Shown here: in pieces, positions 639 to 24,720 of the stretch | Layout of the letters: each line of letters begins with the position of its first letter | Numbering within the stretch: the stretch's first letter is position 1 | Assembly: GCA_041611735.1 (NCBI GenBank) | Contig: JBFIML010000052.1 | Span: 1-27,187 of the forward strand | Direction: 5' to 3' | Length of the DNA stretch: 27,187 bases | From: Myxococcota bacterium | Lineage (GTDB): Bacteria > Myxococcota_A > UBA9160 > PR03 | Notes under the pieces: generated by a model | Database searches by the model: none | What the model saw: the letters and a program-made list of their open reading frames with translations, nothing else | Told to the model about the DNA's origin: nothing | Translations under genes and position numbers: made by a program

Positions 639-676
639 GCGGGTCTTGAGCGCCCCCAGGGGCGCTCAAGACCCGC
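639..676. terminator. GC-rich hairpin after groEL (probable terminator or mRNA-stabilising stem)
   Basis: Perfect 18-bp inverted repeat GCGGGTCTTGAGCGCCCC (639-656) / GGGGCGCTCAAGACCCGC (659-676), starting 22 nt after the groEL stop. There is no U-tract. Confidence 0.6.
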
Positions 677-702
677 CTCGGGGCCACCGAAGACGACGGG
701 GC

Positions 703-2037
703 GTGAGTGCGCTGCTTCGTCTTTCCGCCATGGGCCTGCATCCCGAGCCGCTCCCGAACGGCCGCGGGGCGCTGGTCACCCTCCCCTTCGGTCCGGCGCC
801 GCTTCCCACCCTGGGCCGCCCGCGTCGTCTCGAGGCCGTCCGCTTCGCCACGGTCGGGACCGACCGGATCAAGTGTCTGGCGCCGCGGGTGCTCTTCTAC
901 CTGCCGCTGATTCCGATCACGGACTGCGAGACGCGCGAGGACCTGGAGGCGCGCATCCGGGACGCGTGGCGTGCGCGGCTCGACGCCTTGCGCCGCGCCC
1001 GCGGCTGGCTCGAAGGCCTGGGGGTCGAGGCGCAGGCTCCGAACGACACCCCGCAATGGACCTTTCCGCTACCGATCGGCGACGGCTCGGGCCTGGCCAG
1101 CTGCACGGAGCCCGGGAAGGTGGTGCTGCCCTCCGTGGGCGCCCTGGCGGGCGTGGCCCTGGAGGACCCCAAGGACCGCACCCTGACCGTGGATCGGACC
1201 CTCGCCTCCGCCGTCGATCTCGAGATCGCCATCACCAACCAGATCGAGTCCCTGGGCCGGGCCCACGCGGAGCGGGAGGCACGCCGCCGCCAGCGCGGTC
1301 TGCTGCTGGACCCGCCGCCCACAGCGGCCGAACGCCAACACCTGCCGCCCGTGCTCCTGCTGGGACCTGGCCTGGAGGCGCAGCAGACGCTGCACGAGTC
1401 GCTGCGCTTGCGCGGCTTCCGGGTCTCCGCGGTGCGCTCGATCCAGGAGGCCGTGGAGGCCTTCCAGGAGGCGTCCTACGAGCTGGTGCTCGCGGAGGCG
1501 AGCCTCGACCGGGGAGACGGCATCGAGACGATCCCGGCCATCCGCGGCCTGCCGGGCATGGCCCGGGTGCCGGTGGTGATCGTGGACGACCGCTTCCGGC
1601 AGGCGCGGCGGGAGACGGCGCGCGAAGCGGGGGCGAGCGGCTACCTGACCCAGCCCCTGGACGTGGGGCGGCTGGCCCCGACGCTCACGCGCCTGGTGAC
1701 CCGACCCCGGCACCGCCGCTTCACGCGCTATGCGCGTCCCCTGGCGGTGTGCTGGCGGGGAACCCGGGACGGGGAGGTCGCCGCCGTGGTGGGACGGGGC
1801 GGGATGTTCGTGCGCACGGAGCACCCCTTCCCGCAGAACGCCTGCGAGCGCTTCGAGCTGTACCTGCCGGATTTCGGCCAGGGGGTCGCCGTGGAATCGG
1901 AGATCGTCTACCGGCTCGCCGGCGGCGCGACGAGCCCCGCGGGCGTGGGCATCCGCTTCCGGGGCTTCCCGGACGGAGGGGAGTCGCTGTGGATCGCCTG
2001 GCTGCGCAGCCTCGAGCCGGCCGGGACGACCGGCTGA
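703..2037 (+). CDS. Signalling protein: uncharacterised N-terminal region, atypical receiver (REC) domain, C-terminal PilZ-like domain
   Basis: REC-like segment GFRVSAVRSIQEAVEAFQEASYELVLAEASLDRGDGIE...VPVVIV...EAGASGYLTQPLD. PilZ-like segment RRFTR...GRGGMFVRT...AGVGIRF. The start is uncertain (GTG 703 or ATG 730); the ORF-track start at 646 lies inside the hairpin. Confidence 0.8.
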   Translation: MSALLRLSAMGLHPEPLPNGRGALVTLPFGPAPLPTLGRPRRLEAVRFATVGTDRIKCLAPRVLFYLPLIPITDCETREDLEARIRDAWRARLDALRRARGWLEGLGVEAQAPNDTPQWTFPLPIGDGSGLASCTEPGKVVLPSVGALAGVALEDPKDRTLTVDRTLASAVDLEIAITNQIESLGRAHAEREARRRQRGLLLDPPPTAAERQHLPPVLLLGPGLEAQQTLHESLRLRGFRVSAVRSIQEAVEAFQEASYELVLAEASLDRGDGIETIPAIRGLPGMARVPVVIVDDRFRQARRETAREAGASGYLTQPLDVGRLAPTLTRLVTRPRHRRFTRYARPLAVCWRGTRDGEVAAVVGRGGMFVRTEHPFPQNACERFELYLPDFGQGVAVESEIVYRLAGGATSPAGVGIRFRGFPDGGESLWIAWLRSLEPAGTTG

Positions 2038-2057: not shown

Positions 2058-2279
2058 CTACATGCCCCCGTCGAGCTTGGACCGCGCCCGGGCGATGTCC
2101 TGGTCCATGACGGTCTTGCGCTTGTCGGCGGCGGCCGAGGCCTGGGCCTCCCGGGCCAGCCGGGCGATATAACCCTCCGCCGCCTCCACGGCCTTCTCGA
2201 GCGCGCTGCCGGAAACACGCAGACCGCCGCCGTGCTTGGCGAGAAGCCGCTTGATCACCGCGTTGGGAAGTTCCCCCAT
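2058..2279 (-). CDS. Histone-fold protein (archaeal HMf-like; NFYB/HMF family)
   Basis: 73 aa, MGELPNAVIKRLL...LRVS...AREA...KRKTVMDQDIARA, aligning by eye to HMfA/HMfB (MGELPIAPIGRII...ERVS...GRKTIKAEDIELA). SD GGAGGG lies 6 nt upstream of the ATG. Confidence 0.92.
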   Translation of the reverse strand: MGELPNAVIKRLLAKHGGGLRVSGSALEKAVEAAEGYIARLAREAQASAAADKRKTVMDQDIARARSKLDGGM

Positions 2280-2309
2280 CGATATCCCTCCAGGGAGCGC
2301 AGGGCGCTC

Positions 2310-2339
2310 ATGCTAGGTGGCAGACCGGAGCCTTGTCAA
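2310..2339 (-). promoter_or_regulatory. Putative sigma70 promoter of the histone gene
   Basis: On the - strand: TTGACA (2339-2334), 18 nt, TAGCAT (2315-2310), ending 30 nt upstream of the ATG. The -35 box overlaps the larC stop codon. Confidence 0.7.
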
Positions 2340-3550
2340 CGCGGAGTCTGCCGCCGGGCAGCCTCCTCGGCCAGCCGCACGATCTCCCGCAGCGGGATTC
2401 CCGCGCGACGCGCCAGCCGCTTGCAGTCGTCGTACTCGGCGGAGGCGCTGACCCCGCCCTGCGGGTCGCGGACGAGCTTGACCCGGACCGGCCCGTGGCG
2501 GGTCGCGACCCGGCGCACCTGGCGGTGGAGCACCAGGCGGTCGCACTCCTGGACCCGGACCCCGAGCGTGGTGGACTCGGCGAACAGCACGCGCGCCACG
2601 GCCAGCCGCTCCGACGGGCGCGCCAGCACGCGCAGGCCGAAGCCCGGCCGGCTCTTCTTCATCTGCAGGTGCTGGAGCGTCACGTCCAGGGCGCCGGCTT
2701 CGAACAGGCGCTCCATCAGGTACTCGAAGTGCTCCGGCACGAGGTCGTCGAGGTTCGTCTCCAGGCACACGACCCGGTCCGCCGAGAGGCCGTCGGCACG
2801 ACCGAGCACGGCGCGCAGCACGTTCGGGAGCACGCCGGGGCGGTCGTCGCCGGCGCCGTGACCCACCGCCTCCACCCGCAGCGCCGGCAGCGGGCGGAAC
2901 TCGTCCACCAGCGTGCGCGCCAGGGCCGCCCCGGTGGGCGTCACGGTCTCCCAGGCCACGTGGGCCGGCACCACCGGGACGCCGCGCAGGAGCTCGAGGG
3001 TGGCGGGGGCCGGGAGCGGCAGCGTGCCGTGCTCGGTCTCCACCTGACCGTGGCCCAGGGCCAGGGGCGAGCAGGTCAGACGGCGCACGCCGAGCCGACG
3101 CAGGCCCGCCACGCAGCCCACCACGTCCACCAGCGCGTCCACGGCCCCGACCTCGTGGAAGTGCACGCGCTCCACGCGGACCCCGTGCACGCGCGCCTCC
3201 GCCCGGGCCAGCCGCTCGAAGACGGCCAGGGCGCCGGCGCGCACCTCGTCGGCCAGGCGCGCACGCTGGAGCAGGCGGCGGATCTCGGCGAAGCTGCGGC
3301 CGTGCGAGTCGGGATGGCGAGGCACCTCCACCTGCACGTAGCGCGCCGCCAGCGGGCCGCGCCGCACCCGGCCCACGCGCAGGCGATGGCGCAGGCGGAG
3401 GCCCGCCAGGTCGGCCTGGAGCTCGCGCCGCGGCAGTCCGAGATCCAGCAGCGCGCCGAGCAGCATGTTGCCGGCGATGCCCGAGAAGGCGTCGAGATGC
3501 AGCACGCGCCCGGCCGCGCCGCTAGAGGCGGTTGATGAGCGTCGCGACAT
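2336..3550 (-). CDS. larC: Nickel-pincer cofactor biosynthesis protein LarC (nickel insertase)
   Basis: Motifs LHLDAFSGIAGNMLLGALLDLG, VHFHEVGAVDALVD, PAPATLELL, TPTGAA, ETNLDD, MKKSRPG, ESTTLGVR, AEYDDC. Confidence 0.95.
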   Translation of the reverse strand: MSRRSSTASSGAAGRVLHLDAFSGIAGNMLLGALLDLGLPRRELQADLAGLRLRHRLRVGRVRRGPLAARYVQVEVPRHPDSHGRSFAEIRRLLQRARLADEVRAGALAVFERLARAEARVHGVRVERVHFHEVGAVDALVDVVGCVAGLRRLGVRRLTCSPLALGHGQVETEHGTLPLPAPATLELLRGVPVVPAHVAWETVTPTGAALARTLVDEFRPLPALRVEAVGHGAGDDRPGVLPNVLRAVLGRADGLSADRVVCLETNLDDLVPEHFEYLMERLFEAGALDVTLQHLQMKKSRPGFGLRVLARPSERLAVARVLFAESTTLGVRVQECDRLVLHRQVRRVATRHGPVRVKLVRDPQGGVSASAEYDDCKRLARRAGIPLREIVRLAEEAARRQTPR

Positions 3551-4295: not shown

Positions 4296-4823
4296 TCAGA
4301 CCGACGGCTCGGGGTCGGGCGTCCAGACCAGGAGCCCCTGCAGCGTCCCGGCCGCGTCCACCAGCGGCGTCTCGATGCGCAGGGGCCCGGGCCGCCGCGT
4401 GGCGCAGCGCTCGACCTGCGGCACCGACGGCACCACGCGGGCCGCCAGGGTGTCCGCCAGGGCGGAGAGGGCGTGGGAGGCCAGGATGTTGCCGGCCTCG
4501 CCGAGAGCCGACTCCACCTGCTCCGGCGCCGACTCCGACTCCGGGGTCCCCAGCAGGCGCGCGAGCAGCGACGCCCGGGCGCTGTCCGGGAAGAGCACCG
4601 CCAGGCTGCCGCCGAAGCCGCCTTCCACCCGGAACAGCACCCCGGTGGCGTCGGGCTCCGGCGCAGCGGGCTCCGGGGCCCGGGTCGGAGCCTCGCTCAG
4701 ACGCGGCACCTGCATGCGGATCGTCCGGCCCAGCAGCACCGCCAGGGCGCCGGCCGCATGGCCTGCCCCGATGTTGGCCAGCTCCGCCCAGCGGTCGAGT
4801 TCTCGGGGAGAGTGGTGGCTCAT
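4296..4823 (-). CDS. cheC: CheC-family phosphatase (DifG-like)
   Basis: Two ExxN motifs ([14 protein letters not shown] and [14 protein letters not shown]); ATGA overlap with the cheA stop. Confidence 0.88.
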
Positions 4824-5956
4824 GGCAGCTGGCCGAGCTCCACCACGAAGACCGGCCGGCCATCGCCGAGCAGCGTCAGGCCGGCGATGCCGCGCAGGCG
4901 GGCCAGCAGCGCCGGGAGCGGCTTCACGTAGATCTCCTGCTGGCCGGCCAGGCGCTCCACGCGCAGCGCCACCCGCTGGCCGCGGATCTCGGCCAGCAGC
5001 AGCGGGCAGGCAGGCCCGCTGGCCGGCACCTCGCCCCAGCCGAGACGCTCGGCCAGGTCGAGCACCAGCACCGGCTCGCCGTCCAGGGAGACGAAGCTCT
5101 CCCCCCCGCTGCGCTCGATGGCGTCGGGTCCCACCTCCACGATGCGCTCCACCTTGGCGATGGGAACCGCCACCAGCTCCTGGCCGATCCCGACCAGCAG
5201 CACGCTCTGCACCGCAGCGGAGATCGGCACCACGAGCGTGGTGGTGGTTCCCTCGCCCCGGCGCGACACCAGCTCCACCTGGCCGCCGAGCGCCTCGATG
5301 GTGGCCCGCACCGCGTCCATGCCCACGCCGCGGCCCGAGATCTCCGAGACCCCCTCTGCAGTGGAGAGGCCGGGGCGGAACACGAAGGCCGCCACCTCGT
5401 CGGGCGGCAGGTCCTCGGCCAGGTCCGGGTGGAGGAACTTCTCCGCCACGGCGCGCGCGCGCACCGCCTCCACGTCGATGCCGGCGCCGTCGTCGCGCAC
5501 GGCGATGCGGATCACCTCGCGGTCCCGCATGGCCGCGATCTCGAGCCGGCCCGCCTCGGGCTTGCCCGCGGCGCGGCGGCGGTCCGGGGTCTCGACGCCG
5601 TGATCGACCGCGTTGCGCACGAGGTGCACCAGGGGGTCGTAGAGGCGGTCGAGGATGGCGCGGTCCAGCTCGAGCTCGACGCCGCGCAGCTCCACCTGCA
5701 CGCGCTTGCCGCCGCGCAGGGCCACGTCGCGGGCCACGCGGGGGAGGTTCTCCATCACGCGCAACAGGCGCGTGGTGCGCAGGCCCAGGGCGCGGCGCTG
5801 CAGGTCGCCCACCACCCGGTCCATGCGGTCGAAGCCGCGCGTGAGCCGCGCCGAGCGGCCCGTGGCGTCGGCGGCGGTGCGAAGCTGGCTGGTGGCCAGC
5901 ATCACCTCGCCCACCGCCGAGAGGAAGCGGTCGATGGACTCGGTGCGCACGCGCAC
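4820..5956 (-). CDS. cheA: CheA C-terminal part (P3 dimerisation, HATPase, CheW-like P5); the frame is open back to the A9 run at 6019-6027
   Basis: [73 protein letters not shown]. No Hpt domain in this frame. Confidence 0.93.
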
Positions 5957-6000: not shown

Positions 6001-6417
6001 CTACCGGAGCGTCGGGGCTTTTTTTTTCGGTTCTCGGGCGGGGGCGGGCGCCACCGCCAGGGCGCGCACGAGCGCCGGGTCGGCGGACGGCGGGGCTCCG
6101 CTGGCGCGCACGGCGCCGATCAGGCGCTCGAGCTCCTCCAGAGCGCGGAACCAGAGCGGCAGCTCCTCGGGCTCCCCGATCCCGCCGGTGCTGCGGCAGC
6201 GGCCGATGCGGTCCTCGAGCCGGTGGGCCACCTCGGTGATCGGGTCGTACTCCAGGGAGCCGGCCATGCCCTTGATGGAGTGGGCCATGCGGAACAGCAG
6301 CTCGAGCGGCTCGGCGGCGCTCGGATCCTTCTCGAGCGCGAGCAGCGCCCGGCTCATCTCGGCCAGGTGCTCGCCCGCCTCTTCGAGGAACAGGCTGCGG
6401 TACTTGGCGACGTCCAA
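6001..6417 (-). CDS. cheA: CheA N-terminal Hpt (P1) domain as a separate 138-aa ORF
   Basis: [18 protein letters not shown]...[15 protein letters not shown]...AHRLED. TTG start. It ends [13 protein letters not shown] just after the A9 run. Confidence 0.9.
6019..6027 (-). other. A9 homopolymer at the cheA frame junction (candidate slippery site)
   Basis: The - strand reads CCG AAA AAA AAA GCC CCG ACG CTC CGG TAG. A -1 shift (or one extra A) gives [31 protein letters not shown], continuous with the kinase frame. Confidence 0.75.
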
Positions 6418-20249: not shown

Positions 20250-22820
20250 TTGGGAGACGTCCACTTCGAAGTGCTGCCCAACGGGCTCACGCTGCTGCTG
20301 CGCGAGTCCCGACGCGCGCCCGTGGCCGCGGTCCAGATCTGGGCCCGCGTCGGCTCGGCCGACGAGCGCCCCGGCGAGGAGGGACTCGCCCACTTCCACG
20401 AGCACATGCTGTTCAAGGGCACCGAGCGGCGGGGCCTGGGGGAGGTGGCGGGCGAGATCGAAGGCGTGGGCGGGCGCATCAACGCCTACACGAGCTTCGA
20501 CGTGACGGTCTACCACGCCACCGTGCCGGCCGACGCCACCACGGCCGCCCTCGACGTGCTGGTGGACGCCGTGCGTCGCTCCGTCTTCGACCCGGACGAG
20601 ATCCGCCGGGAGATCGACGTGGTGCTGGAGGAGATCCGGCGCTCGGAGGACTCGCCGCACCAGGTGTGCGGGAATGCGCTCTTCGCGGAGCTGTATCGGG
20701 CGCATCCCTACCGGGCGCCGATCCTGGGCACGCGGGAGAGCGTCGCGTCCTTCGACCGCGACCGGGTGCGGGCCTTCTTCCGGCGCTGGTACACGCCGGA
20801 GCACCTGATGGTGGTGGCGGTGGGGGACTTCGACGCGCAGGCCCTGGGGCGGGCGGCGGCGGCGGCCTTCGCCGACGCGACACCCGGCGAGGCGCGCCGC
20901 GCGCGCCCGGCCGAGCCGGCGGAGCGCGTCCTCAGGGCCCTGCTGCTGCGACGGAACTTCGAGCGCGCCTGCGTGGAGCTCGGCTGGCCCGCGGTGGGAC
21001 TGGCGGACGCCGACACGGCGGCTCTCGATCTGCTGGGCTTCGTGCTGGGCGAGGGCGAGAGCAGCCGGCTGGTACGGCGGGTGAAGGAGCGCGCGGGCCT
21101 GGTGGATCGCATCGACGCCTTCGCGTACACGCCGCTCGATCCCGGGGTGTTCGGCGTGGCGGTGGACCTGGACCCGGAACGCACGGAGGACGCCCTGGCG
21201 GCGATCCTCCAGGAGACGGAGCGGGTGCGGCGCCACGGCGTCTCCGCGGAGGAGCTGGAGAAGGCGCGCACGAACTTCCTGGCCCAGGAGGACTTCGACC
21301 GCGAGAGCGTGGGCGGCCTGGCGCGCAAGCTCGGCTCCTTCCAGGCCCTGGCGGGGGACTTCCGGCGCGAGGCGGAGTACCTGGACGCGGTGCGGCGCGC
21401 CACGCCCGAGGACCTGCGGCGCGTGGCCCAGGACTACCTGGCGCCGGAGCGGCTCTCGATGGCAGCGGTGGTGCCGGAGGGGAGCGTCGCGGAGCTCGAC
21501 CCGGAGGCGCTGGTCGCCGCCGTGCGGCGCGGCGCCGACGCGCGCAGCGTGCAGGCGAGCGTCCTTGCGCCGGCCGCGCGGGCGCCGGAGCTGCGCCACT
21601 ACGCGCTCCCGAATGGGGCGGAGCTCTTCGTGGAGGCGCGCCGGGAGGTGCCGGTGGTGGCGGCGCGGGGCGCCTTCCTGGGTGGGCTGCTGGCCGAGGA
21701 CCAGAAGAACGCTGGTCTCACCAGCTTCTTGACCTCCATGTGGCTGCGCGGCACACGCCACCGCTCCGCGGCGGAGCTGGCGCGGGCGATCGAGTCGCTG
21801 GCCGCGGATCTGGACGGCTTCTCGGGGCGCAACTCGATGGGCGCGACGCTCGAGGTGCCGAGCGCGCGCCTGGAGCCAGCCCTGGATCTGTTCGCGGAGG
21901 TGCTGCTGGAGCCGGCCTTCGACGCCGAGGAGCTGGAGCGCGAGCGCCGCGACACGCTGGCGGCCATCGCCCGGCGCGAGGACCGGCTGGCGGCGCGCGC
22001 GTTCGATCTCTTCTGCGCCACGCACTGGGAGCGCCACCCGTACCGGCTGCCGCTGGTGGGGAGCGCCGAGAGCGTGGCGCGCGTCAGCCGGGCGGATCTC
22101 GAAGCCCACCACGCGCGTCTCGTGCGCAGCCGCAACCTGGCGCTGGCCGTCGTGGGCGATGTGGACCCGGACGACGTGGCCGAGGCCCTGGCGGGGCGGC
22201 TGGTGGATCTCGACGGCGGCGGCTTCGAGGCGCCCGCGCCGCCGCTGGAGGCGCCGCCCCGGGAGCCGCGCGAGGCGGAGCTCGTGAAGGAGCGCGCCCA
22301 GGCGCACCTGGTGATCGGCTTCCGCGGCGTGACGGTGCACGACGAGGACCGCTACGCCCTGGAGGTGATCGCCCAGCTGCTGGCGGGCCAGGGCGGGCGA
22401 TTGTTCCTGGAGCTGCGCGACCGGCGCAGCCTCGCCTACTCGGTGAGCGCCATGAACGTGGAGGGGCTCGCCCCGGGCTTCTTTGCGGTCTACATCGCCT
22501 CGGCCCCGGAGAAGCTGGGGGAGGCGCGCCGCGGGCTCTTCGAGGAGCTGGAGCGGCTGGTGCAGGAGGCGCCGTCGGACGCGGCGCTGGAGCGGGCGCG
22601 CCGTTACCTGGTGGGGAACTTCGCCATCGACCGGCAGCGCAACGCCGCCCGGGCCGCCCAGACCGCCCTGGACGTGCGCTACGGCCTCGGCGCGGACGCG
22701 GCCGTCCTCTACCCGGAGCGCATCCGGGCCGTGGGGCGCGAGGACGTGCTTCGCGTGGCCCGGCAGGTGGTGGACCTCTCGGCCTACACGCTGGCGGTGA
22801 TCCGCTCGCCCGGCTCGTAG
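20250..22820 (+). CDS. M16 family (pitrilysin/PqqL-like) zinc protease with fused active and inactive halves
   Basis: LPNGL, GLAHFHEHMLFKGT (HxxEH), INAYTSFD; second module LPNGA...HPY...ELRDRRSLAYSV. Start is TTG 20250 or GTG 20226. Confidence 0.93.
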   Translation: MGDVHFEVLPNGLTLLLRESRRAPVAAVQIWARVGSADERPGEEGLAHFHEHMLFKGTERRGLGEVAGEIEGVGGRINAYTSFDVTVYHATVPADATTAALDVLVDAVRRSVFDPDEIRREIDVVLEEIRRSEDSPHQVCGNALFAELYRAHPYRAPILGTRESVASFDRDRVRAFFRRWYTPEHLMVVAVGDFDAQALGRAAAAAFADATPGEARRARPAEPAERVLRALLLRRNFERACVELGWPAVGLADADTAALDLLGFVLGEGESSRLVRRVKERAGLVDRIDAFAYTPLDPGVFGVAVDLDPERTEDALAAILQETERVRRHGVSAEELEKARTNFLAQEDFDRESVGGLARKLGSFQALAGDFRREAEYLDAVRRATPEDLRRVAQDYLAPERLSMAAVVPEGSVAELDPEALVAAVRRGADARSVQASVLAPAARAPELRHYALPNGAELFVEARREVPVVAARGAFLGGLLAEDQKNAGLTSFLTSMWLRGTRHRSAAELARAIESLAADLDGFSGRNSMGATLEVPSARLEPALDLFAEVLLEPAFDAEELERERRDTLAAIARREDRLAARAFDLFCATHWERHPYRLPLVGSAESVARVSRADLEAHHARLVRSRNLALAVVGDVDPDDVAEALAGRLVDLDGGGFEAPAPPLEAPPREPREAELVKERAQAHLVIGFRGVTVHDEDRYALEVIAQLLAGQGGRLFLELRDRRSLAYSVSAMNVEGLAPGFFAVYIASAPEKLGEARRGLFEELERLVQEAPSDAALERARRYLVGNFAIDRQRNAARAAQTALDVRYGLGADAAVLYPERIRAVGREDVLRVARQVVDLSAYTLAVIRSPGS

Positions 22821-24604
22821 GCGACCAGCGGCGGGCGGCCTGAGCGAACGCCGAGCTCGAAGCGCAGCCGGTCCGGCGCGTGGCCGGCGCAGCGCACGAT
22901 CCCCCGATGCACGCCGCGCAGGTGGTGCCAGGCGCACAGGGTCGTGCGGTTCGAGAGCTCGTTGGAGCCGCCTTGGGAACGGAAGACCACGTGGTGGTCG
23001 TGCAGGTTCTTGTAGGACGAGCAGCCGGGCACCGTGCAGCGCCAGCCGTCGCGGTCGAAGACCGGGTGGGGCGCGCCGGGGCTCCGCCAGGCGTGGAAGA
23101 CGTGCTCGAGCATGGCGTCGAGGGCCTGGCCCTCGCTGGGCGTGCCGGGGAGGCGTCTTCGGAGCGAGCAGAGGGCGGCGCGGAAGAAGCGGGTGGACGC
23201 GACCGGGCCGTTCCAGAAGACGCGGGCGGTCTCGGCTTCGCGCTGGCTTCCCGGGTCGTCTCGACCGGCGGCACTGGGATCCGCACCCGTTTGCCGCCCC
23301 GTGGGGTCGAGGACGCCGCTGGCCAGGGCTGCAGCCACGTCGTCCTGGAGGCGGCGCACCGAGACGCGCTGCGCGTGAGCGATCCAGCGCGCCCGGAAGC
23401 GCTCGGCGTGCTCCGGCACCAGCACCGGGAGGAGCGCGTGGGCCTGGACCCAGGAGATCCGTCCCTCGCGGAAGGCACGGCGCAGCTCCGGGCAGACGTC
23501 GCCGGCGCGCTCGAGGCGCAGCAGCATGCGGACCTTGCGGGGCGCCAGGCCGAGGCGTTCGCGGGCGTACTCCTCGAGGCTGCGGCAGCCGGCGTGCCGG
23601 TAGAGGCGCTCCCGGGCAACTTGCAGCAGGAGCGGCGCGAGCTTGGCTGCCAGGCGCTGCTCCAGGGTGAGGGCCGCGCGCAGGCGGGCGTCGAGGGCGA
23701 AGGCGTCGGCGTGCTCGAGATCGGCGACCAGGGGTGCCAGGGGGGCGGGAAGCAGGACGGGCCGCGCGCGCGGATCGGTGCCGGTGTCCGGGGCGGGTTC
23801 CGGGTGGGGCTCATTGCCGGGCCGGCCCTGGGATTCGCACCCGTTTGCCGCCCCGCGGGTCGGGGCGCACGCGCGGGTCTCCCCGGTCTCGCAGCCCGTC
23901 TCGCAGACCGCGGCGGCCGACGCCTGCGCGTCCAGCGGGAAGGCGGAGAGCACCTCGGCGGCGATCGTCTCCATGCACTCCCAGACCGGGAGCGCCTCGC
24001 CGGCCACGCGCCGGGCGAGCTGCCGCGCCGAGTGCCAGCGCGCCTGGACGCCCGGCGTGCAGCGGATGGCGAGGGTCTCCCGGGCGTCCTCGGGGATGCC
24101 GTCCTCGTCCGCCTGGGCCGCCCCGGCCTCGAGGGAGCCCACGTCCACCGCCCGCACCGCCCGGGCCAGGGCGCGCGCCGACGTGCCCCGGGCGAAGGCG
24201 AGCCAGCGCGGCTCGTCGGCGGACGTGGCCACGCGGCAGAGCAGCCGCGCCTCGGTCCACGTGAGCGTGCCGCCCACGAGCGCCGCCTCGACGCGCGGCA
24301 GCCCCGCCAGGGCGGCGTCCGTGCGCGCGAGATCCTGCACCGAGCGCGCGGCCAGGCCGAGGCGCTCGCGGGCGTAGTCCGAGAGGCGGGCGTAGCCGAG
24401 CCGCTCCCAGGCGCGGCGCTCGACCAGGCGGCCGGCCAGGGCCGCCACCACCCGCCGCAGGGCCCCGCCGCTCTCGGCCAGGGCCTCCAGGCGCTCGAGC
24501 GCGTCCCGGGCCGGCGGGGCGCGCACCACCCGGAGGGCAGGACGCGGGCCGGCGCGGATGCGGAGGACGGCGCGCGAGGCGCGGCGCCGCGAAGCCACGA
24601 ACAC
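22784..24604 (-). CDS. HNH endonuclease with duplicated DUF222-like helical domains
   Basis: C-terminal RDGWRCTVPGC...HDHHVVFRSQGGSNELSNRTTLCAWHH; two YARERLGL modules. Start uncertain (GTG 24604 or 24598). Overlaps the M16 gene end by 37 bp. Confidence 0.85.
   Translation of the reverse strand: MFVASRRRASRAVLRIRAGPRPALRVVRAPPARDALERLEALAESGGALRRVVAALAGRLVERRAWERLGYARLSDYARERLGLAARSVQDLARTDAALAGLPRVEAALVGGTLTWTEARLLCRVATSADEPRWLAFARGTSARALARAVRAVDVGSLEAGAAQADEDGIPEDARETLAIRCTPGVQARWHSARQLARRVAGEALPVWECMETIAAEVLSAFPLDAQASAAAVCETGCETGETRACAPTRGAANGCESQGRPGNEPHPEPAPDTGTDPRARPVLLPAPLAPLVADLEHADAFALDARLRAALTLEQRLAAKLAPLLLQVARERLYRHAGCRSLEEYARERLGLAPRKVRMLLRLERAGDVCPELRRAFREGRISWVQAHALLPVLVPEHAERFRARWIAHAQRVSVRRLQDDVAAALASGVLDPTGRQTGADPSAAGRDDPGSQREAETARVFWNGPVASTRFFRAALCSLRRRLPGTPSEGQALDAMLEHVFHAWRSPGAPHPVFDRDGWRCTVPGCSSYKNLHDHHVVFRSQGGSNELSNRTTLCAWHHLRGVHRGIVRCAGHAPDRLRFELGVRSGRPPLVAYEPGERITASV
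23274..23855. repeat. 28-bp direct repeat pair inside the HNH gene
   Basis: CTGGGATCCGCACCCGTTTGCCGCCCCG (23274-23301) and CTGGGATTCGCACCCGTTTGCCGCCCCG (23828-23855), 27/28 identical. Confidence 0.85.
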
Positions 24605-24696
24605 GACTTGGGAAGGCTCGCCCGGGACCGATCGGGGTAGCCGCCAGACTACGCGCCCCGCGTGACAGAAACGGTCACGCCCACGAGCGGGCCGCA

Positions 24697-24720
24697 AGAA
24701 AAAACGCCCGGAGCGCCCCC
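24697..24720 (-). terminator. Possible weak intrinsic terminator after the methyltransferase
   Basis: The - strand reads GGCGCT-CCG-GGCGTT followed by TTTTCTT directly after the stop; the stem relies on G-U pairs. Confidence 0.3.

Follow-up and report, generated by a model that had tools for sequence, protein, structure and literature searches.

In an uncultured marine myxobacterium (Myxococcota), a small gene encodes a histone of a kind that published classifications describe as absent from bacteria. The gene occupies positions 2058..2279 on the reverse strand of contig JBFIML010000052.1, of which 27,187 nucleotides were analysed (this whole stretch is referred to below as the window). In its predicted structure the 73-residue product has the helix lengths of archaeal HMf-type histones and not the shortened form of the bacterial histones characterised to date; it adds to the bacterial singlets a third kind, of full length. 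The family to which it belongs is already catalogued in databases and in one supplementary table, yet it is unstudied. We consider it likely that the protein is a native, vertically inherited histone that serves as a homodimeric DNA-binding protein of the nucleoid, making the canonical contacts with DNA and, as we hold by a smaller margin, not polymerising into canonical hypernucleosomes.

The match of the 2058–2279 product to the histone fold is beyond chance. The reading frame opens with an ATG, runs for 73 codons and ends at a stop codon at 2058–2060; the protein it specifies is small (7.6 kDa) and basic (isoelectric point 9.86, charge approximately +3.6 at pH 7, with 13 lysines and arginines against 9 aspartates and glutamates). 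Pfam family PF00808 (CBFD_NFYB_HMF) is matched with an E-value of 2.7e-10 and 40.8 bits (cut-off 21.4), and the match takes in protein residues 3–65 on profile positions 2–64 of 65. The core histone family PF00125 is also matched (36.4 bits, cut-off 26.4), whereas the NCBIfam model for archaeal histones, NF043032 (archaea_histone), gives 40.1 bits, below its cut-off of 50. By Pfam the protein is a bare histone fold with neither tails nor an extra domain. An earlier inspection of the letters alone (the sequence-only reading) had described a basic 73-residue protein with E3-L4-P5, R11, R21-V22-S23, R54-K55-T56 and D61; all of these are present in the translation, and the profile search it proposed as a check has come out in its favour.

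The helix lengths are those of the archaeal type. An AlphaFold2 model built from a 32-sequence alignment has a pLDDT (predicted local distance difference test score) of 92.5 and comprises alpha1 (residues 6–16, 11 residues), alpha2 (24–51, 28 residues) and alpha3 (59–71, 13 residues). Loop 1 carries R21-V-S and loop 2 carries R54-K-T; R54 and D61 make up the R-D clamp, and 12 residues lie C-terminal to the clamp aspartate. With the numbering of HMfB verified on PDB chain 1a7w_A (residues 2–67), its R19, R52, T54 and D59 align with R21, R54, T56 and D61 of the Myxococcota histone, and the only insertion or deletion relative to HMfB, HMfA and HPhA is one added residue in loop 1 of the Myxococcota protein. 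The interval of 33 residues between R21 and R54, which the sequence-only reading had equated with that between R19 and R52 of HMfB, is indeed the same in the crystallised chain. Measured from the loop-1 serine to the loop-2 arginine, the spacing is 31 in both the Myxococcota histone and HMfB, but 27 in a Bdellovibrio singlet (a manual count on the sequence in the supplement of Hocher et al. 2023).

Comparison with solved structures leads to the same place. The model superposes on HMfB as found in the hypernucleosome crystal (5t5k_A) with Z 10.1 and an rmsd (root-mean-square deviation) of 0.9 Å over 67 of 67 residues, on HMfB 1a7w with Z 9.9 and 1.1 Å over 68 of 68, and on HPhA (1ku5_B) with Z 9.4 and 1.1 Å over 66 of 66. 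The sole bacterial histone among the structure matches listed, HBb of Bdellovibrio (8cmp_A), gives Z 6.3 and 1.8 Å over 58 residues that are scattered across model residues 2–66. Foldseek returns HPhA as its top chain (template-modelling score 0.90 on the target, 1.3 Å). Even a profile made from bacterial sequences alone (128 rows) ranks archaeal histones first when compared with the PDB: HMk at an E-value of 1.8e-11, HPhA at 2.7e-11, HMfA at 1.7e-9, HHoB at 7.9e-9 and HMfB at 1.2e-6. The earlier claim of a full-length alpha2 and a complete alpha3 therefore holds in the model, which superposes on every HMfB residue of 5t5k_A and only in part on HBb.

Conservation separates the DNA-contacting surface from the surface between dimers. 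At E ≤0.001 a collection of 5.8 billion proteins contains 382 relatives of the Myxococcota histone; residues were counted in 118 of the best 120, two longer than 78 residues having been dropped. K10, R11, R21, R54, K55, T56 and D61 do not vary at all among the 118, and the family has a median isoelectric point of 9.30. The RxTxxxxD motif, the R-D clamp and the sprocket arginine of loop 1, all features of HMf-type histones, are present, and the retention of DNA-contact residues and clamp foreseen by the sequence-only reading thus extends to all the relatives counted. The four-helix-bundle residues of the HMf type, however, are replaced throughout the family. L46, H49 and L62 at the tetramer interface of HMfB correspond to S48, A51 and R64, the very substitutions noted earlier: position 48 is serine in 67 relatives, alanine in 27, leucine in 23 and valine in 1; position 51 is alanine in 102, serine in 10, glycine in 4, asparagine in 1 and aspartate in 1; position 64 is lysine in 86, alanine in 13, arginine in 8, glutamate in 4, serine in 3 and threonine in 3. 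Histidine at 51 occurs in 0 of the 118, as does leucine at 64. Of the adjoining positions, 52 is aspartate in 90, asparagine in 20, glutamate in 7 and serine in 1, and 63 is glutamate in 50 and aspartate in 41.

Prediction of a complex points to a dimer. Four copies of the chain gave an interface score of 0.79, against 0.00 for the best control; in a set of 30 proteins solved as pairs, 20 attained this mark, as did 1 of 23 proteins solved as single chains, in a calibration that used two copies and the tool's own alignments, whereas four copies were run here. The runs agree on at least 89% of contacts, with a partner pLDDT of at least 84. The confident contacts describe a handshake (alpha2 with alpha2, and L1 with L2) between one pair of copies only; that interface does not include positions 47, 48, 51, 52, 64, 67 and 68, and a position left unnamed there is an uncertain one. 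The high score is probably a reflection of the resemblance of the protein to the many histone dimers that have been solved. The histone most likely forms a handshake homodimer, and the check by structure prediction that the sequence-only reading had suggested yields, at the level of a model, both the fold and the pair. Because the histidine and leucine of the bundle are missing, we lean, by a small margin, towards a protein that would not build canonical hypernucleosomes.

How does this protein relate to the classes already described? Schwab et al. 2024 divide prokaryotic histones into two groups, nucleosomal and alpha3-truncated (PMC11390915); in the latter, alpha3 has 3–4 residues and alpha2 is 4–5 residues shorter (PMC11390915). 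The bacterial singlets described there, and again by Hu et al. 2025, are all alpha3-truncated, being either face-to-face (FtF) or bacterial-dimer histones (PMC11390915, PMC12701072), while nucleosomal full-length histones are said to 'exist exclusively in archaea' (PMC11390915, PMC12701072). The reference lengths for nucleosomal histones are approximately 28 residues for alpha2 and approximately 10 for alpha3 (PMC11390915; 10.1101/2025.06.26.661778). The Myxococcota histone, with 28 and 13 in the model, falls with the nucleosomal lengths: its alpha3 (59–71) is not reduced to 3–4 residues, nor is its alpha2 shortened by 4–5, the spacing of 31 being that of HMfB. Since it departs from the alpha3-truncated group in both lengths and also lacks the HMf bundle residues, we file it in neither published class; in its workings it would come closest to a dimer of HMf length.

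The view that bacterial singlets are short has a traceable origin. Hocher et al. 2023 described a short alpha2 as 'diagnostic of bacterial singlet histones', in which, moreover, the sprocket arginine is not conserved (PMC10627809), but proteins longer than 65 residues had been removed before alpha2 was measured (PMC10627809), and it is to this exclusion that we attribute the rule. The supplementary table of the same study includes a 70-residue protein from 'Deltaproteobacteria bacterium UBA6930' on contig DKAI01000097.1, the contig of one of our own loci (L065), as well as a 76-residue Lentisphaerae protein that belongs to a second full-length group (described below). In the accessible portions of the published literature on bacterial and nucleosomal histones we found no description of a full-length bacterial histone, and the source-data file of Schwab et al. 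contains no motif of this family and no occurrence of the word Myxococcota. The novelty is smaller than the sequence-only reading had assumed, as relatives are labelled 'histone-like protein' and one member appears in a published table.

Of the systems known, the archaeal HMf-type histones (HMfB and HMfA, 1a7w, 5t5k, 1b67 and 1hta; HPhA, 1ku5; the Asgard histone HHoB, 9qv5) are the closest. They share with the Myxococcota histone the three-helix fold and its helix lengths, an alignment from end to end in which loop 1 has the one added residue, superposition at 0.9–1.2 Å across 66–68 residues, the sprocket arginine, the RxTxxxxD motif with its R-D clamp, the N-terminal ELP...R and the lack of tails or extra domains. 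The differences are the bacterial host, an identity of 32–39%, the bundle residues (S/A/L, A and K/R in the family) and the low score with NF043032; judged by its residues, the Myxococcota histone is a doubtful candidate for hypernucleosome formation. HBb (Bd0055 of Bdellovibrio bacteriovorus, 8cmp) is likewise a bacterial, tail-less singlet with an RKT loop 2, an R-D clamp and no bundle histidine (PMC10627809, PMC11390915), and by analogy the Myxococcota histone may act, as HBb does, as a DNA-bending dimer. Yet in HBb alpha2 is shorter by one turn and alpha3 amounts to a single turn (PMC10627809), where the Myxococcota histone is full length, and the sprocket arginine, not conserved in bacterial singlets (PMC10627809), is invariant in the Myxococcota family. 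The FtF histones (HLp of Leptospira perolatii, HTkC of Thermococcus kodakarensis) have the histone fold and the clamp in common with it and have been reported from Myxococcota and other bacterial phyla (PMC11390915, PMC12701072). Their closed tetramer is held by R48 and N52 (PMC11390915); the Myxococcota histone has S48 and D52 at these positions, as mapped by spacing back from the clamp arginine and not by alignment, in addition to its 28-residue alpha2 and 13-residue alpha3. The structures of HLp and HTkC are absent from the structure matches listed, and the FtF type is set apart here by its description and by residue spacing.

The gene is native to its lineage, vertically inherited and under constraint. 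The host assembly (118 contigs totalling 4.09 Mb, with a completeness of 95% and a contamination of 0.64%) has one histone-fold (PF00808) gene. A protein search of the host's family and order was positive in 33 of 41 genomes, the host included; carriers make up 15 of the 16 other genomes of the same family, 19 of the 23 genomes with a completeness of 90% or more, and 10 of the order's 12 families. When the phylum was sampled evenly, PF00808 was matched in 37 of 301 genomes, every one belonging to this order or to a single family of the same class, where 10 of 10 genomes matched; the remaining families of the sample gave no PF00808 match. When 36 of the 37 matches were checked as sequence (30 from the loci of this sample, 6 from loci or proteins of the family and genome searches), all proved to be of the same full-length type. 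One genome of the host's family (G010, 98% complete, 4% contamination) has two matches, G010:C121:2456-2671 and G010:C31:11345-11551. The second equals the copy of G031, a genome of another family, in score and in open-frame length, and may for that reason reflect an error of binning and not a paralogue.

Gene order tells a similar story. Thirty-three distinct loci were surveyed with 1.5 kb of flank on each side. Of these, 30 have a larC homologue upstream, on the strand of the histone gene, and a homologue of a response regulator is convergent downstream in 22 of 33. The histone is more strongly conserved than its neighbours: relative to the closest genome it is 88% identical, larC 81% and the regulator 62%; dN/dS (the ratio of non-synonymous to synonymous rates) against orthologues of the same family is 0.10–0.21, with dS near saturation. 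A maximum-likelihood tree (55 sequences, 74 columns, many unresolved forks) recovers families f1 (97/87) and f13 (97/82) as clades and places archaeal-like singlets outside, weakly (78/92). Homologues also occur on contigs of several megabases, which speaks for a native gene. The sequence-only view of a native gene free of mobile-element context is upheld: the neighbours are bacterial, and both gene order and gene tree follow taxonomy.

Beyond these genomes the family is compact and rather isolated. The best 120 of the 382 relatives are 70–97 residues long; those with a name bear the database labels 'histone H3/H4' (JGI) or, in metagenome-assembled genomes (MAGs) of Myxococcota or Deltaproteobacteria, 'histone-like protein' or 'NFYB/HAP3 family transcription factor subunit'. 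Among 185,579 genomes, one per species, 145 stretches encode a relative; within the best 80 of the 145, 78 are titled MAG and 2 are uncultured or unnamed assemblies, with no named cultured strain. A set of 1.84 billion representatives at 50% identity yields 67 matches at E ≤0.001 and none at 1e-30: among the 67 the closest full-length proteins are other bacterial-type singlets, and archaeal-like ones appear at E-values of approximately 1e-5 to 1e-4.

The reading that we prefer can be put as follows. Two chains would form a classical handshake homodimer, which would contact DNA through the paired N-termini of alpha1 with K10 and R11, through the L1-L2 sites with sprocket R21, K55 and T56, and through the R54-D61 clamp. 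As the dimer has the full HMf-type length, its DNA-binding ridge would be as long as in the archaeal nucleosomal histones, and it would bind and bend approximately 30 bp of DNA irrespective of sequence. The hydrophobic and histidine core of the HMf bundle is replaced by small or charged residues, and because of this replacement polymerisation into canonical hypernucleosomes would not be expected; the protein may act as a DNA-bending dimer, or may assemble via a different interface. Binding to DNA, abundance and oligomeric state on DNA are what we infer in this scheme.

Several considerations weigh against it. Besides the histone, the host genome carries two genes of the HU/IHF family, and the histone therefore need not be the main nucleoid protein. 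In family f10 of the same order the histone is found in 0 of 19 genomes by PF00808, each at least 90% complete, and in 0 of 3 by the protein search; the gene is therefore dispensable in close kin. Family f7 has a histone-fold match in 0 of 1 and 0 of 3 genomes, and the absences from f10 and f7, where most sampled genomes are at least 90% complete, suggest loss. DNA binding is deduced solely from conserved residues, and the 118 relatives in which these are invariant are close kin (71–100% identity), not independent samples. Missing histidine and leucine at the bundle positions are no proof against tetramers, and tetramer predictions for histones are reported to be unreliable without DNA (10.1101/2025.06.26.661778).

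It is possible, though we think it unlikely, that the protein is a true DNA-wrapping histone, whose dimers would join on DNA through a re-wired polar or charged contact of alpha2 and alpha3 (K/R64 with acidic partners, for example) into tetramers or longer superhelices. The fold is fully HMf-like and includes the 13-residue alpha3, the helix that builds the bundle; all the canonical DNA contacts are kept; the conserved charged positions 63 (E50/D41) and 64 (K86/R8 of 118) could pair across an interface; and HMfB, too, tetramerises only on DNA (PMC12701072). Set against this are the family-wide lack of His51 and Leu64 (0 of 118), and the status of the bundle histidine as the hallmark of the four-helix bundle, whose loss has been linked to the inability of HBb to wrap DNA (PMC10627809). 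The extra residue of loop 1 presumably sits where successive turns of a hypernucleosome pack, and we count it against wrapping. Another proposal is that the protein is not a component of chromatin but a histone-fold scaffold or a specific regulator of the NFYB/HAP3 kind. Against it, the residues that are invariant are exactly those with which HMfB contacts DNA, and the top matches in both sequence and structure are archaeal chromatin histones. A regulator would agree with the name 'NFYB/HAP3 family transcription factor subunit' given to some members by the NCBI pipeline, with the lack of the gene in some families of the order, and with the existence of eukaryotic histone folds that do not organise DNA (PMC10627809). 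But an NF-YB-like protein works as an obligate heterodimer, and with a single PF00808 match in a 95%-complete genome there is no NF-YC-type partner for it; nor does the bare 73-residue fold have any additional domain. We regard a regulator as improbable.

Far less credible still is the idea that archaeal DNA contaminates the bin, or that the gene was acquired very recently from an archaeon. Archaea do supply the nearest solved relatives, yet the gene sits on a 27-kb contig among bacterial groEL, larC, che, lon and dnaK, and its composition is native (GC content at third codon positions, GC3, of 0.89, in a window of 74% GC where the adjoining genes have a GC3 of 0.91–0.97). The recurrence of the gene order in 30 of 33 loci, a presence that tracks taxonomy, the 40.1 bits obtained with the archaeal histone model whose cut-off is 50, and the bacterial type of the closest full-length representatives all speak against this origin. 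On the grounds of neighbours, composition, gene order and taxonomic distribution, contamination and recent transfer were rejected.

The immediate surroundings of the gene carry candidate signals for its expression. A Shine-Dalgarno-like GGAGGG (2286..2291, reverse strand) lies 6 nucleotides before the ATG, a function suggested by its sequence, and comparable GGAGG runs precede the ATG in orthologous loci. Further upstream, the gene has a promoter-like site of its own: TTGACA-N18-TAGCAT (2310..2339, reverse strand), of sigma-70 type, with 10 of 12 positions matched. It is the sole such site within 1900–2700 (the mean for shuffled sequence is 0.0), and the TGA stop codon of larC (2336–2338) lies within its putative −35 hexamer TTGACA (2334–2339). 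Of the 33 distinct loci, 16 have the pattern TTGACN-N16-21-TANN[AC]T no more than 160 nucleotides upstream of the histone gene, as compared with 3 matches in 197,564 nucleotides elsewhere in those loci on both strands. The upstream gene itself, larC (2336..3550, reverse strand; nickel insertion protein, PF01969, E-value 8.2e-134), is on the same strand as the histone gene, and in 13 of the 30 loci that have larC upstream more than 800 nucleotides separate the two, space enough for another gene. Because of the wide gaps and the promoter-like site, a functional tie of the histone to larC and larB was rejected. The sequencing runs listed as containing the stretch, among which there was no RNA run, are DNA metagenomes, some of them possibly its source, and have no bearing on expression or habitat.

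On the other side, the response regulator (646..2037, forward strand; PF00072, E-value 8.1e-11) is convergent with the histone gene, with 20 nucleotides between the two stop codons; its C-terminus has a weak PilZ-like match of 20 bits, under the cut-off of 22.5. The remainder of the window includes groEL, larB, a che cluster, lon, dnaJ/dnaK/grpE, a hemN-like gene, an M16 peptidase and a gamma-glutamyltranspeptidase. Among the open reading frames (ORFs) of the window that were scanned there was no gene of a mobile element, and Rfam matched nothing in the window. A CheA-like kinase is split between two ORFs on the reverse strand (4820–5956 and 6001–6417): a 138-residue protein with Hpt only is followed, 44 nucleotides on, by a 378-residue HATPase_c-CheW protein, and at 1e-5 Pfam detects the dimerisation domain in neither. 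Either the gene is truly split or a frameshift divides it. A 637-residue ORF at 22784–24697 (reverse strand) has a coding-like GC3 of 0.93 and matches no Pfam family at E ≤1e-5.

A second group of full-length bacterial singlets came to light in the protein and genome searches (P0135, P0228-P0231 and P0236, of 72 residues; L125-L128; P0138, P0149 and P0164). Its members have approximately 50% identity to the Myxococcota histone, align with it without gaps and have the same extra loop-1 residue. They are found in MAGs labelled Acidobacteriota or Vicinamibacterales, on contigs of up to 5.5 Mb, and a sample of 121 genomes of that class has them in 2; in the tree they fall within the Myxococcota radiation, on a branch that is long and weakly supported (85/82). 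A scan with the Acidobacteriota protein confirmed at least one locus, and PF00808 did not detect a truncated copy in that genome. Doublet histone-fold proteins of metagenomic origin (P0144, P0163, P0167, P0172 and P0177, 154–203 residues), each with two matched stretches at E-values of 1e-8 to 2.5e-4, are among the nearest matches outside the family. Many of the 50%-identity representatives match over the first 40–50 residues only (P0124, P0126-P0129, P0131, P0137, P0140, P0147 and others); these are probably frameshifted or chimeric gene calls from metagenomes, not fusions.

The family contradicts both the rule that a short alpha2 is 'diagnostic' of bacterial singlets and the rule that full-length histones are confined to archaea. 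Nor is it a stray gene: most families of the order and a sister family retain it, together with the gene order and the promoter-like site, and it adds a data point on the spread of histones between archaea and bacteria. It also offers a natural experiment, a dimer of HMf length without the tetramer residues of HMf, and comparison with HMfB, HBb and HLp would part the length of the dimer from the bundle interface, either of which may decide between bending and wrapping. Although the hosts are uncultured, a protein of 73 residues can be obtained from a synthetic gene. The most far-reaching version of the finding, to which we give only a small chance, is that a class-level lineage of Myxococcota and the related Acidobacteriota/Lentisphaerae MAG group package part of the chromosome with full-length wrapping histones that have a re-wired contact between dimers. 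If true, HMf-type wrapping would not be confined to archaea and eukaryotes, and the full-length fold would either predate the split of bacteria and archaea or have crossed between them long ago and been kept.

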